DNA from: Pseudomonadota bacterium
GTDB taxonomy: Bacteria > Pseudomonadota > Alphaproteobacteria > UBA9219 > RGZA01
Assembly (NCBI GenBank): GCA_016195205.1
Contig: JACQAB010000066.1
Span: 1-32,075 of the forward strand
DNA: 32,075 bases
Reading direction: 5' to 3'
Position numbers and translations under genes: made by a program. Within the stretch, counting starts at the first letter, position 1, and each line of letters begins with the position of its first letter. Positions 7,923 through 15,523 of this stretch are shown here, piece by piece. Below the pieces are notes generated by a model. The model worked only from the letters and a program-made list of their open reading frames with translations, searched no databases and was not told the origin of the DNA.

Positions 7923-7967
7923 TGGTGGACAATACAGGGCTCGAACCTGTGACCCGCTGATTAAGAG
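7923..7967 (-). repeat. Orphan 3' half of tRNA-Lys (CCA end to anticodon loop); att-like direct repeat
   Basis: tggtggacaatacagggctcgaacctgtgacccgctgattaagag matches 15448-15492 at 44 of 45 positions (hand alignment). The adjacent sequence cannot supply a D-arm or the 5' acceptor strand, so this is not a functional tRNA. Confidence 0.85.
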
Positions 7968-8131
7968 CCCCGCCCATAGCTTTCTATAATTTTTCGATTT
8001 CAATCTCAACAATTTGATTCAGTTCGATAAAGGGAAGAATCGCCTATCCCGTTTGTTCTCTAAAAATCCCTCGGAAACCCGCCTTTTCTTGGCACGATTA
8101 CACGGAAATTACACTGAGTTTTTTGAAGTGA

Positions 8132-8569
8132 TTAGGATTTATACTTTAGGAGCTTAGCCCTGATGAAATGAGCCAGCGACAGCTTGCCGGGGCCGAAGCA
8201 CAGGAGGGTGGCCAGCAGCATCGCCCAGTAGAAATGCTCCATGTTGCTGTCATAGGTGAACTGGATGACGGCAACCATCGCCAGCATCGGCAGGGTGGCA
8301 AGTCGCGCTCCAAGTCCCAGCACCAGCAGCACCGGGCAAGCCAACTCGAAACTGGTGGCAAATAGCGCCGCAAGTGAAGGCGGCAGCAAGGGAACGTGAT
8401 ATTCTTCCTTGAAGAGATAGAGAGTGTTACCCCAATCCTCTATCTTCACCATGCCGGATTGCCAGAAAATCTTGGCCATCCATAGCCTTGCCGCCAAAAG
8501 AACGAGATTTCCCAATTCCTGCAACATGGCTAGGATGCGGGTGGCGGCTTTGACGCAGGCTGGATGCAT
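8132..8569 (-). CDS. DoxX family membrane protein
   Basis: Multi-TM protein with a DoxX-like sequence (LLAARLWMAKIFWQSGMVKI...ELACPVLLVLGLGARLATLPMLAMVAVIQF). The ORF-track start at 8623 lies upstream of the predicted ECF promoter's transcription start, so I prefer the ATG at 8569 (MHPACVKAATR...). Confidence 0.8.
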   Translation of the reverse strand: MHPACVKAATRILAMLQELGNLVLLAARLWMAKIFWQSGMVKIEDWGNTLYLFKEEYHVPLLPPSLAALFATSFELACPVLLVLGLGARLATLPMLAMVAVIQFTYDSNMEHFYWAMLLATLLCFGPGKLSLAHFIRAKLLKYKS

Positions 8570-8609
8570 GGCGCGGTTTCCCTTCGCGTCGTTCGTTATC
8601 TTTAGTTCC

Positions 8610-8636
8610 TTCGGTTTAGGCATCGTTTTGGTTACA
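8610..8636 (-). promoter_or_regulatory. ECF (SigF/ECF16-like) promoter motif TGTAACC-N16-CGAA upstream of DoxX
   Basis: The minus strand reads aTGTAACCaaaacgatgcctaaacCGAAgg with an exact 16-nt spacer. It is one of three identical-architecture motifs in the window. Confidence 0.6.
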
Positions 8637-9199
8637 TGAATACGGAAAAGAACCCTTTAAATCCTGAAACCGGGAATGAACGGCTGGAAATCCTCATGTC
8701 TCTTGCTCTTGCGGGAGACAGAAAGGCCTATGAGCGGGTTTTGCGCCTTGTTAGCCAGCGGTTAACCGTTTTTCTTGGCCGGAAGCTCCCCGCCAAAGAC
8801 CGCGACGATGTGATGCAGGAGATTTTGCTTTCCATTCATAAGGCCCGCCATACCTACGATCCGGCCAGGCCGCTGATGCCCTGGGTTATGGCCATTGCCC
8901 GCTACCGGATGCATGACCATTGGCGGCGGCATTACGGCCATTCTTTCGATGAAATGGCCGATATTGAGGATTTAAAAAATATTTTGAGCACGGACATAAC
9001 CGAAACCCTTCATGGTAACGAAGATATAAGAAGGATACTTGTGACCTTGCCGGAGCGGCAGCAGGTAATCCTTGAATTGATGTACCGGCAGGACAAAAGC
9101 GTGCGGGAGGTTGCCAAACAGTTAAAAATGAGCGTTTCGGCGGTGAAAGTCGCGGCGCACCGGAGCTACAAGATTTTCCGCAAACATCTGAAAGCGTAG
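8636..9199 (+). CDS. ECF-type RNA polymerase sigma-70 factor (SigF/ECF16-like)
   Basis: 187 aa. Region 2 (DDVMQEILLSIHKARHTYDPARPLMPWVMAIARYRMHDHWRR) and region 4 HTH (LPERQQVILELMYRQDKSVREVAKQLKMSVSAVKVAAHRS). It is followed 5 nt later by a DUF1109-type anti-sigma. An alternative start exists at 8696. Confidence 0.85.
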   Translation: MNTEKNPLNPETGNERLEILMSLALAGDRKAYERVLRLVSQRLTVFLGRKLPAKDRDDVMQEILLSIHKARHTYDPARPLMPWVMAIARYRMHDHWRRHYGHSFDEMADIEDLKNILSTDITETLHGNEDIRRILVTLPERQQVILELMYRQDKSVREVAKQLKMSVSAVKVAAHRSYKIFRKHLKA

Positions 9200-9204
9200 A
9201 AGAA

Positions 9205-12474: not shown

Positions 12475-12753
12475 ATGCGCCGATTGTTGCTAACCATCAT
12501 GTTCGTTCTGCTATCTTTCGCCGCCAGCGCGGCGGTTCCGCAAACGCTTACCCTCGATGTGCAAAAAATGACTTGCCCTGTTTGTCCATTCACGGTTAGC
12601 GCAGCCCTTGAGAAAGTGCCCGGTGTAACGAAAGCAAATGTTGATTTTTGGGATAAAACCGCGACGGTGACTTTCGATCCTGATAAAACCAACGCCGAGG
12701 CCCTTATCAAGGCCACCACGGAGGCGGGGTATCCATCCTCGGTGAAGCCATAG
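12475..12753 (+). CDS. merP: MerP-like periplasmic heavy-metal-binding (HMA) protein
   Basis: SD AAAGGAGAG upstream of the ATG at 12475, signal peptide, MTCPVCPFTV metal-binding motif, and a C-terminal ATTEAGYPSSVKP nearly identical to the canonical MerP end. Confidence 0.85.
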   Translation: MRRLLLTIMFVLLSFAASAAVPQTLTLDVQKMTCPVCPFTVSAALEKVPGVTKANVDFWDKTATVTFDPDKTNAEALIKATTEAGYPSSVKP

Positions 12754-12771
12754 GAATTGTTCACAGAAAAA

Positions 12772-12999
12772 ATGTCTGTAAAATCCCAATCCACCATCAC
12801 CTGCCCGCATTGCGGCTACCAGAAAACGGAGATCATGCCGGTGGATAGCTGCCAGTTTTTCTATGATTGTCAGGGCTGTCAGGCCGTGCTGCGTCCCAAA
12901 CAGGGAGATTGCTGCGTGTTCTGCTCTTACGGTTCTGTGCCCTGCCCGCCGGTGCAGCAAGCCCGTGCTTTGGAAAGTAATGAGCGGGGCAAGCTATGA
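12772..12999 (+). CDS. GDCCVxC domain protein (small Cys-rich, mer-associated family)
   Basis: CPHCGY...[34 protein letters not shown] contains the GDCCVxC signature. The start is either ATG 12772 or TTG 12757. The stop overlaps the next start (ATGA at 12996-12999). Confidence 0.75.
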
Positions 13000-15344
13000 G
13001 AAGGACCGGTTTTTTTATAGTATGGGCGTCGATCGTGATCTCTATGGCGGCCCATGCAATGGAACCGGAAAAACAAAAACCTAATCGCCTGATTAACGAA
13101 ACCAGCCCTTATCTGCTGCAACACGCCTATAATCCGGTGGAGTGGTATCCGTGGGGCGAAGAAGCTTTTGCCAAGGCGCGCAAGGAAAACAAGCCTATCT
13201 TGCTCAGCATCGGCTATTCCACCTGCTACTGGTGCCATGTGATGGAGCGCGAGACATTCGAGAACGAGGCCATCGCCAAGCTGATGAATGATTCCATCAT
13301 CAGCATCAAGATCGACCGCGAACAGCGCCCGGATGTGGATGAAATCTATATGACCGCCACCCAACTGATGACGCAAAGCGGCGGCTGGCCAAACAATGTG
13401 TTCGTCACGCCCGATCTCAAGCCATTCTTCGCCGGAACTTATTTTTCGCCCGAAGATACGTCTTATCGTCCTGGCTTTGCGACGCTCATCAAGCACATCC
13501 ACGAGGAATGGACAAAAAACCCGGAAGCAATCAAGGAACAGGCGGAGCGTGTGCGCGCCGCGATTGTTTCCTTCAAGCAGGGGGAAAGCCATCAGGTTGC
13601 CACGGCCTTACCGGATCAAAACACTGTCCAAACCCTGCTCGATCATTTTCGGAATAATTACGATAGCCATCTGGGCGGTTTTTATCAGGCCCCGAAATTT
13701 CCCAATGAAGATGCCCTGCTGTTCCTGCTGGCGGCTTACCGGATGAACAATGATGCCCGTGCCTTGGAGATGGCGCAGTTCACGCTCACTAAAATGGCCG
13801 AGGGCGGGATTTACGATCAGGTCGGCGGCGGGTTCCACCGCTATTCCACCGACGCCGAATGGCGCATCCCGCATTTTGAAAAGATGCTTTACAATCAGGC
13901 CCTGCTTGGCCGTGCCTATACGGAACTTTATTCTTTCTCGAACGCGCCTCTTGACCGCGGCATCGCGGCCAGCACCTTCGATTTCGTGTTGAGAGATATG
14001 ACCCATCCGGAGGGTGGCCTTTACTCGGCGCTGGATGCCGAAACGGATGGAGCGGAAGGCGCTTCTTACGCCTGGACGGAAGCGGAGTTGCAGAAAATCC
14101 TCGATCAAAAATCCTATGTCTGGCTGAGCCGGTATTACGGCTTGGCCGACATTCCCCACATACCGGGGCACAAGAACACCGACGGGAAAATCCTTTATCT
14201 GAAACAGCCGGTTGCCAAAATCGCGGCGGCGGAAAAAGTCTCATCCGAGCAAGTCCTTGCCCGGATGCAACCTATCATGGATACCCTGCGCAAGGCCCGC
14301 GATAAACGGCAACAGCCGCGTCTGGACGACAAGATCATCACCGCCTGGAATGGTTTGATGATCGACAGCCTGGCCCGCGCCGGGATGGAGTTAAAAGAGG
14401 AAAAATATACGGAAGCCGCAAAGAAAGCGGCGGATTTCGTGCTGGCCCATCTGCGCACCCCGGACGGGGAGTTGCTGCGCATGTGGCGCGGCGGCAAGGC
14501 CCAGACTCCTGCGTTCTTTGAAGATTACAGCTTCCTTATTCAAGGGCTGGTTTCTACTTATCACGCGACGAAAGACGGGCGCTATCTTGCCGAGGCGGAA
14601 AAACTTGCGCAAAAGGCCAAGGAAATATTCTGGGATAAGGAAGGCGGAGGGTACTTCTATACCGATGGGAATGAGGCGTTGCTGGTGCGCATGAAAAACG
14701 CCGAAGATTCGGCCATTCCTTCCGGCAATGCCATCATGGCACAGGTCCTTCTGGACTTATACGAACTTACGGGCAAGGCCGAATGGAAACAGCAGGCGGA
14801 AGATATGCTCAAGGCCTTCGGCATGGCGATAGAAGCCAATCCCCGAAGCTATACCCATTTGGTGCATGCCTTGCTGCGTCTGGATCACGCCGCGCCGGTA
14901 GCCGACACAACCAGCATGCAGAATGTTGCGGTCGCAGCCGATAAGGACGCCATGTCAACCATGACATGGGTGAAAGTCAGCGTTCCTGAAAACGCGGTCA
15001 AACGTAACACTGATCAGCTTCGCGTGACGGCGGAACTGGATGTTGCTCCCGGCTGGCATGTTAATGCCAATCCCGCCAGCCTGGATTTTCTGGTTTCCAC
15101 CTCGGCGGATTTACGCGAAGATTCAGGAGCGCTGGTCATAAAAGCTGTCCATTACCCCGAAGCCACGGCTATGACAACCCCGTTGGGTCATATTAAAATC
15201 TATGAAGGAAAGATTCTCATCTCCATAGAGGCGCGAGCGCCCAAGGACGCAAAAAATCTCCGCCTTCTTGTCCGGGCGCAAGCCTGCAAGGACACCACCT
15301 GCCTTGCTCCGTCGGACTGGGTGATTAAGTTGCCGGGATCATGA
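12996..15344 (+). CDS. Periplasmic thioredoxin-fold DUF255 (YyaL-like) protein with a C-terminal DsbD-N-like domain
   Basis: 782 aa with signal peptide [43 protein letters not shown] is the DUF255 CxxC thioredoxin motif. The C-terminus ([19 protein letters not shown]...[18 protein letters not shown]) resembles the DsbD N-terminal/ScsB-type Ig-fold domain. Confidence 0.85.
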
Positions 15345-15447
15345 AAAATTTTATTAAGCTCGACACAAAAAGTGTTGCCCCGGATGTTGCCCAGAGGAGG
15401 GGCTGATTTGCATCAACCCCTCAAAATCGGCGTAACCTATTGAAAAA

Positions 15448-15523
15448 TGGTGGGCAATACAGGGCTCGAACCTGTGACCCGCTGATTAAGAGTCAGCTGC
15501 TCTACCAACTGAGCTAATTGCCC
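15448..15523 (-). tRNA. tRNA-Lys (anticodon CUU)
   Basis: The minus strand GGGCAATTAGCTCAGTTGGTAGAGCAGCTGACTCTTAATCAGCGGGTCACAGGTTCGAGCCCTGTATTGCCCACCA folds as a 76-nt cloverleaf: 7-bp acceptor, GCTC/GAGC D stem, GCTGA/TCAGC anticodon stem with loop CTCTTAA, ACAGG/CCTGT T stem, and an encoded CCA. Confidence 0.95.

Follow-up and report, generated by a model that had tools for sequence, protein, structure and literature searches.

The 32,075-nt contig JACQAB010000066.1, the whole of which we call the window, comes from the metagenome-assembled genome (MAG) of an uncultured alphaproteobacterium (assembly GCA_016195205.1) and contains a single tRNA gene, tRNA-Lys(CUU), according to both ARAGORN and Rfam; the Rfam scan found no other RNA family in the window. 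To the left of this gene lies an orphan copy of its 3' half, called as a tRNA by neither program, and the 7,480 bp between the two copies, here termed the island, are the subject of this report. The island is densely coded, with intergenic gaps of at most 225 bp, and holds 11 genes, all with cargo functions (Table 1). A doxX gene is divergent from the other ten, which encode a sigma factor of the extracytoplasmic function (ECF) type, its NrsF anti-sigma factor, a bufferin cluster (bufABC), and then a small Cys-rich peptide, MerT- and MerP-like proteins, a GDCCVxC-domain protein and a DUF255/DsbD_N fusion.

Table 1. Features of the tRNA-Lys(CUU) locus and its island, in window coordinates (aa, amino acids; SD, Shine-Dalgarno; TM, transmembrane)
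Feature	Position	Strand	Evidence and remarks
cupin gene	7126-7806		adjoins outer side of orphan fragment
orphan tRNA-Lys(CUU) 3' half, anticodon loop to CCA	7923-7967	-	44/45 vs 15448-15492; distal attR-like site, displaced fragment
AT-rich non-coding left arm	7968-8131	.	GC 0.40 vs 0.53 for whole island; its ORFs without family match
doxX (bufD-like)	8132-8623	-	Pfam DoxX E = 1e-15; likely start ATG 8569, giving 145 aa
sigma-F-type promoter motif before doxX	8610-8635	-	perfect GTAACC-N16-CGAA
ECF sigma factor (SigF-like)	8636-9199	+	Pfam Sigma70_r2, Sigma70_r4_2, Sigma70_ECF
NrsF anti-sigma factor	9205-9843	+	Pfam NrsF E = 1.3e-31, full length
sigma-F-type promoter motif before bufA	9847-9872	+	perfect GTAACC-N16-CGAA
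bufA, bufferin precursor (DUF2282)	9899-10204	+	Pfam DUF2282 E = 2.7e-23; likely start 9932
hairpin between bufA and bufB	10210-10248	+	17-bp stem; terminator-like scan
bufB, MNIO enzyme (MbnB/DUF692)	10256-11122	+	Pfam MbnB_TglH_ChrH E = 1.2e-109
bufC (DUF2063 partner)	11007-11885	+	Pfam DUF2063 E = 1.2e-13; weak NGO1945_C match; start probably near 11119
sigma-F-type promoter motif before third (small-peptide/merT) operon	11882-11907	+	perfect GTAACC-N16-CGAA; same position in L084
small Cys-rich membrane peptide	11970-12098	+	42 aa, MSMMCKSGACRAKSGPCIHEK then TM helix (translation); homologous to same-position 39-aa ORF in L084
merT-like transporter	12111-12461	+	Pfam MerT E = 1.6e-33; CC motif present
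merP-like periplasmic HMA protein	12418-12753	+	Pfam HMA E = 4.7e-15; signal peptide, MTCPVC motif; likely start 12475
GDCCVxC-domain small protein	12757-12999	+	NCBIfam NF041374 E = 1.6e-30
DUF255 thioredoxin-like/DsbD_N fusion	12996-15344	+	Pfam Thioredox_DsbH E = 2.6e-73, DsbD_N E = 4.5e-9; 761 aa in NCBI annotation
AT-rich non-coding right arm	15345-15447	.	GC 0.44; tandem TGTTGCCC x2
intact tRNA-Lys(CUU)	15448-15523	-	ARAGORN tRNA-Lys(CTT); Rfam tRNA 73 bits; 3' 45 nt (15448-15492) form proximal attL-like site

The two tRNA-derived copies form a 45-nt direct repeat that agrees at 44 of 45 positions (98%) in the repeat listing of the window (blastn E = 5e-19). Its exact core of 38 nt is the longest exact direct repeat of the window, where 20 shuffles gave 13-19 nt, and a 17-mer taken from the repeat occurs twice in the window with up to three mismatches, against 0.03 expected. 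On the outer side the identity stops at the CCA end, beyond which the flanks are unrelated (gcgaagcg/TGGTGG vs ttgaaaaa/TGGTGG); inwards it goes no further than the 5' edge of the 7-nt anticodon loop, as read directly in both copies, the plus strand running GCTGA-TTAAGAG and then CCCCGCC in the orphan vs TCAGCTG in the gene. The single mismatch (A7929 vs G15454) is at tRNA position 70, changing C70 to U70, with which G3:U70 pairing is still possible. An earlier reading of this DNA from its letters alone (the sequence-only reading) had described this repeat and placed its limits at the anticodon loop and the CCA end, and both descriptions hold at either boundary. That reading had also considered that the fragment might belong to a widespread dispersed repeat, which did not materialize: there are two copies in the window, and the exact 45-mer had 0 matches in 241 million metagenome records, so that the fragment is not a member of a dispersed family. 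A third tRNA-Lys fragment was found neither in the window nor in the related contig L083 described below (17-mer scan with mismatches, blastn). A 30-mer of the repeat had a single match among viral contigs; we rejected it as an attP, since it belongs to a phage tRNA array and is irrelevant here.

This arrangement, an intact tRNA gene followed on its 3' side by a displaced, directly oriented fragment of that tRNA, is the signature sought by Islander, and the orientation fits an element sited downstream of the tRNA 3' end. The regenerated tRNA gene (tDNA) and the displaced fragment mark the two ends of such islands (PMC4383910; bioRxiv 10.1101/2020.11.02.365908). Among the crossover subsites recognized in tRNA genes (anticodon loop, T loop and 3' junction), the edge where identity ends here falls to the anticodon loop; 2083 of 3919 Islander islands, about half, have such an anticodon-centred attP ('A' subsite) (PMC4383910).

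The sequence-only reading had further taken everything between the repeats to be accessory and free of integrase, transposase and transfer genes, and the Pfam and NCBIfam assignments of the 11 cargo genes bear this out. None of these genes has a Pfam match to an integrase (Phage_integrase or other recombinase), excisionase, transposase, relaxase or transfer/secretion gene, and a further 30 open reading frames (ORFs) between the repeats, all in other frames and 50 aa or longer, have no Pfam match. That is, the internal tyrosine integrase by which Islander recognizes its candidates is absent, as is the combination that characterizes integrative and conjugative or integrative and mobilizable elements (ICEs and IMEs), namely an integrase of their own with a relaxase/oriT or a type IV secretion system, both between the repeats and among the scanned ORFs of the remaining window. 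Between the repeats there is neither a deletion scar nor room for a mobility pseudogene, and the AT-rich arm at either end is intact. When the attP arms were reconstructed and searched for arm-type sites, the only short repeat was the tandem TGTTGCCC, which is uninformative.

By Pfam and the published family description (PMC11626156), the cargo includes every member of a buf1-type cluster: a DUF2282 precursor with a Sec signal and Cys residues, an MNIO enzyme, a DUF2063 partner and DoxX. The translation shows four Cys in the core of the bufA product, behind a Sec signal peptide. The start of doxX at 8569 offers an in-frame Met and an SD-like AAGGGA, and its homologues on two contigs compared below (L084 and L088) have 143-147 aa. 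The hairpin between bufA and bufB may be an attenuator that sets the ratio of precursor to enzyme transcript. A canonical mer locus joins MerR and MerA to MerT and MerP; the island has no MerR or MerA, and is therefore probably not a mercury-reduction system. The ORF of the small Cys-rich peptide has no Pfam match. Peptides of this kind (39-42 aa, MSMMCK..C..K.G.CIHEK followed by a TM helix) are found on two unrelated contigs, the window and L084 (15365-15484, minus strand), directly behind a sigma-F-type promoter and ahead of the MerT/MerP/GDCCVxC genes.

The sequence GTAACC-N16-CGAA, defined experimentally as the binding sequence of Caulobacter sigma-F (PMC3511200), is present at three sites in the window, where 0.16 would be expected. 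Each of them is inside the island, has the exact N16 spacer and stands in the correct orientation ahead of one transcription unit; allowing one mismatch brought no extra motif elsewhere in the window. With the adjacent ECF sigma and NrsF genes, these predicted promoters are the sequence marks of SigF/NrsF control, and they suggest that the cargo (doxX, the bufferin cluster, and the operon of the small Cys peptide, MerT, MerP, GDCCVxC and DUF255 proteins) constitutes one regulon. NrsF would hold the ECF sigma factor until metal stress frees it, and the freed sigma factor would then fire the three promoters, driving doxX, bufABC for a periplasmic copper-binding peptide, and the small Cys peptide-MerT-MerP-GDCCVxC-DUF255/DsbD_N operon. 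In Caulobacter, sigF-nrsF/buf1ABCD guards the cell from copper by means of a periplasmic thiooxazole peptide (PMC11626156, PMC3511200). L084, which is from a different organism, agrees with the island in gene families, small peptide and promoter layout, so the combination appears to be a conserved functional unit. The L084 module, at positions 1-21699 of a contig from another MAG, has the sigma-F/NrsF-bufferin-small peptide-HMA-GDCCVxC-DUF255 set with four sigma-F-type promoters; genes for an RND efflux pump and for a P4-type integrase truncated to its Arm-DNA-bind_3 domain are interspersed.

A comparison of composition inside and outside the repeats, proposed with the sequence-only reading, showed the island to differ from both flanks. 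Its GC content at third codon positions (GC3) is 0.62, vs 0.73 in the right flank and 0.68 in the left, and its tetranucleotide usage correlates with that of the right flank at 0.83, vs 0.93 for left with right and 0.95 for the two halves of the right flank. By sequence identity, the island genes also appear to be more like the module of another organism (L084) than like the equivalents in a relative of the lineage (L088): 58% vs 40% for BufB, 61% vs 42% for DoxX, 60% vs 45% for BufA, 43% vs 28% for the sigma factor, and 65% to L084 for the DUF255 protein, for which L088 has no counterpart. L088 is 57-83% identical to the cytochrome P460-to-cupin genes of the left flank of the window. We considered its buf cluster as the orthologue of that of the island and rejected it, given the 28-45% identity vs 57-83% for the neighbours, the different gene order and the absence of the sigma-F motif. 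The best named homologues of the DUF255 protein are from Methylococcaceae, that is, gammaproteobacterial methanotrophs (61-64%); the named matches of HemF, encoded in the right flank, are Alphaproteobacteria (53-57%). A plasmid search with the whole island found no plasmid with the full module, only merT-merP-GDCCVxC matching, at about 65% identity.

The right flank, on the far side of the tRNA gene, is core: hemF, a carbon-nitrogen hydrolase, agmatine deiminase, a decarboxylase, pheT, glycerate kinase, pheS and rplT. L081 and L083, the sole lineage relatives available, are syntenic with it through hemF, aguB/aguA-type genes, arginine decarboxylase, pheT and pheS/rplT; this synteny halts at tRNA-Lys, to the left of which there is nothing in common. 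L083 has an orphan tRNA-Lys fragment of its own; it is 41 nt long, ends within the anticodon loop and lies 1,078 bp downstream of the tRNA. The L081 organism is represented by two independent assemblies (L081 1-167; L082 start), and both end no more than about 100 bp from the tRNA-Lys 3' end, as would be expected if integrated DNA differed among strains. From the L083 orphan and these assembly breaks, the tRNA-Lys locus appears to be a hot spot in the relatives. The L083 islet (5942-7095), 1.08 kb between tRNA-Lys(CUU) and the diverged orphan (79% identity, with compensatory T-stem changes), has no integrase, its sole gene encoding a 214-aa protein with a Shedu SduA_C domain; AbiEi/AbiEii genes follow immediately past the islet.

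To the left of the orphan, the gene cluster at 932-7806 encodes a cytochrome P460, a 337-aa protein, weakly PP-loop-like proteins, 343-aa and 197-aa proteins, and the cupin. The sequence-only reading had placed a PP-loop/cupin operon against the outer side of the orphan; the cupin gene does adjoin it, but the PP-loop label (4406-5374) is sub-threshold (Asn_synthase E = 0.005, ATP_bind_3 E = 0.087). The cluster is kept at 54-83% identity in three uncultured organisms (L087, L088 and L090), with different neighbours each time, and in the window it contains tandem paralogous small-protein genes (2207-2632 and 2654-3097; 298-nt repeat, 73%). In L090 it begins right after tRNA-Leu(GAG), with a TraG-like coupling protein at its other side; we tested whether a tRNA-Leu repeat brackets it there, and none does.

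Dispersed palindromic repeats occur elsewhere in the window. Two families (hemF 16015-16062; pheT 24246-24314, 24429-24575 and 24720-24779; related copies at 21477-21516 and 21662-21745) coincide with window-specific in-frame insertions in housekeeping proteins, adding 20, 49 and 23 aa to PheT and 16 aa to HemF relative to L081 and L083; they resemble Rickettsia palindromic elements, which enter coding genes in frame. Palindromes of another kind, whose units are G-rich and octamer-like (GGGGCTNA and complements), recur in the intergenic DNA of core genes, at 18837-18921, 29109-29183, 30119-30205 and 29661-29721.

We consider that a tyrosine recombinase probably produced the locus by integration at the anticodon loop of tRNA-Lys, and that the integrated element then became or remained non-autonomous. 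The sequence-only reading had seen in the repeat the att footprint of such an element, a view that the recorded crossover class, the composition, the closeness of the island proteins to the module of another organism, the truncated integrase beside that L084 module, the synteny break and the L083 orphan support without proving it. A tyrosine recombinase would have put 7968-15447 into tRNA-Lys(CUU) by a crossover in the anticodon loop; the loop-to-CCA copy brought by the incoming element would now complete the tRNA gene at 15448-15492, and the original 3' half of the host gene would have been displaced by 7.5 kb, to 7923-7967. Having no integrase, excisionase, relaxase or transfer gene, the island should be unable to move unaided. 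It may have arrived in tandem with an element that shared its site specificity and encoded an integrase; this partner would since have excised by itself, or would sit at another place in the genome. Alternatively, the island may have been served in trans by an integrase of that specificity. The intact arms, the lack of a scar and the lack of space for an integrase gene favour these two histories, and make a simple internal deletion a less likely origin of the integrase-less state. Somewhat speculatively, the island could still be mobile, a cassette that has no integrase but carries a complete ECF-sigma regulon from lineage to lineage by means of a trans-acting integrase or a ride in cis with an ICE, and its operon for the small Cys peptide, MerTP, GDCCVxC and DUF255 proteins could at the same time be previously undescribed; we think this joint proposition rather improbable. 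If it were true, bufferin-based metal defence would spread as a plug-and-play unit.

Several observations weigh against integration. The empty site was not found, and there is no close relative among the sampled genomes: the closest HemF relatives are only 69%, 62%, 61% and 59% identical, and the integration is read from one genome. The pattern of the left-flank/tRNA junction had 0 matches in the metagenome collection; a HemF scan of the genome collection returned only non-syntenic Alphaproteobacteria (46-54% identity), with tRNA-Lys beside hemF in 0 of 52 loci; and in an exact sequence look-up neither the HemF nor the cupin protein of the window was on record. Nor does any scanned ORF outside the island, within the 32-kb contig, match an integrase in Pfam. 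The compositional contrast is moderate rather than sharp at the boundary genes (GC3 0.70 for doxX and 0.69 for hemF). In L087, L088 and L090 the cupin is followed by other genes, and tRNA-Lys is absent at that place. In L088 the bufferin cluster and the homologous cupin cluster are about 2.5 kb apart and no tRNA fragment is present, so that a buf cluster hereabouts may predate the island, though the L088 cluster is only 28-45% identical and arranged differently. Finally, in both repeat copies the acceptor-stem partner of A5 of the tRNA is the same unusual base (CAAT vs CGAT in L081 and L083); this would imply that the last donor had a near-identical tRNA, or that the copies were homogenized, or that the fragment arose within the genome.

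An origin within the genome would apply if the orphan were a decayed second, paralogous tRNA-Lys(CUU) or a local duplication that lost its 5' half to an unrelated deletion or insertion, leaving ordinary neighbouring genes in between. The lineage-specific acceptor-stem variant in both copies is the main argument for this, to which the missing integrase and empty site may be added, but it leaves unaccounted a truncation exactly at the edge of the anticodon loop in direct orientation, an L083 fragment that likewise ends inside the loop, intervening DNA of different composition and phylogenetic affinity, and terminal arms that are AT-rich, as is usual for attP arms; we hold it to be quite unlikely. 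Chance, membership in a dispersed family or an artefact of metagenome assembly might be invoked for a repeat in a single MAG contig that does hold several dispersed palindromic families. Yet shuffling never approached the 38-nt core, the repeat is confined to its two copies and lacks exact metagenome matches, its sequence is a tRNA half outside the palindromic families, and a chimera formed at a shared 45-mer would contain it only once, and not at two places with different junctions, so an explanation of this kind is very improbable. The P460-to-cupin cluster raises a different matter: its downstream neighbours vary, and the left flank may itself be accessory. Everything downstream of the tRNA 3' end (1-15447 and beyond) would then be a tandem array, with the orphan as the joint between the younger metal island and an older P460-to-cupin island whose own distal fragment is past the contig end or has decayed. 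The conservation of that cluster (including its 337-aa, 343-aa and 197-aa proteins) among changing neighbours, its place beside tRNA-Leu(GAG) and a TraG-like coupling protein in L090, a left-flank GC3 between those of island and core, and the AbiEi/AbiEii defence genes beyond the L083 orphan are all in keeping with such an array; the lack of a third tRNA-Lys fragment in the window and of a tRNA-Leu repeat around the L090 cluster, and a left-flank tetranucleotide usage near that of the core (r = 0.93), are not. We regard the array as a minority possibility, which would refine the integration of the island at tRNA-Lys rather than contradict it.

The structure is what would be expected as the scar of a tRNA-targeted integration; its kind is already known, and current understanding is unchallenged. 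What the locus adds is modest, a complete and apparently self-regulated bufferin/sigma-F regulon with an extra operon. Bufferin clusters are recently recognized, widespread copper-protective peptide systems, and the two bufferin papers searched, PMC11626156 among them, make no mention of islands or mobile elements in connection with such clusters. A complete cluster lying between att-type repeats with its sigma/anti-sigma pair, promoters and metal operon would be a concrete example of one-block, self-regulating transfer.

In structure the island matches the state of a cis-mobilizable element (CIME), in which the att sites are kept and the mobility genes are gone. CIMEs are defined by attL/attR-type repeats of the 3' end of the target gene with no integration or transfer genes, were described for Streptococcus thermophilus islands related to ICESt1/ICESt3, and are catalogued in ICEberg 2.0 (PMC6323972, PMC5704250). 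A CIME is also able to be mobilized in cis once it has undergone accretion with an ICE or IME that shares its site specificity. Likewise the island is flanked by repeats of a tRNA 3' end and has no integration or transfer genes, its putative attL and attR, as judged from sequence, being two 45-nt copies with one mismatch. However, known CIMEs are mostly from Firmicutes and from identified ICE/IME families, whereas this island is in an uncultured proteobacterial MAG and has no known parent element, cognate integrase or partner ICE. With Islander islands it shares the intact tDNA, the displaced direct 3' fragment and a size in their range of a few kb to tens of kb (PMC4383910). It differs from them in having no integrase inside, which Islander demands of a candidate, and it would therefore be filtered out; island finders with such a requirement miss islands of this type by design.

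Among metal-resistance systems, mer loci of the Tn21/Tn501 type have MerT, MerP and GDCCVxC in the same order, and DNA of plasmid mer loci is about 65% identical; the island lacks their MerR, MerA, MerD and transposase, and its control is apparently by an ECF sigma factor. The Caulobacter sigF-nrsF/buf1 locus (CC3252-CC3257) and the Legionella GIG operon share with it the ECF sigma, NrsF, DUF2282, MNIO/DUF692, DUF2063 and DoxX families (PMC3511200, PMC11626156), and the Caulobacter locus also the GTAACC-N16-CGAA promoter motif (PMC3511200). In contrast to these systems, doxX in the island is divergent with a promoter of its own, a third sigma-F-type promoter heads the added operon of small Cys peptide, MerT, MerP, GDCCVxC and DUF255/DsbD_N proteins, and the putative regulon lies wholly between att-type repeats.

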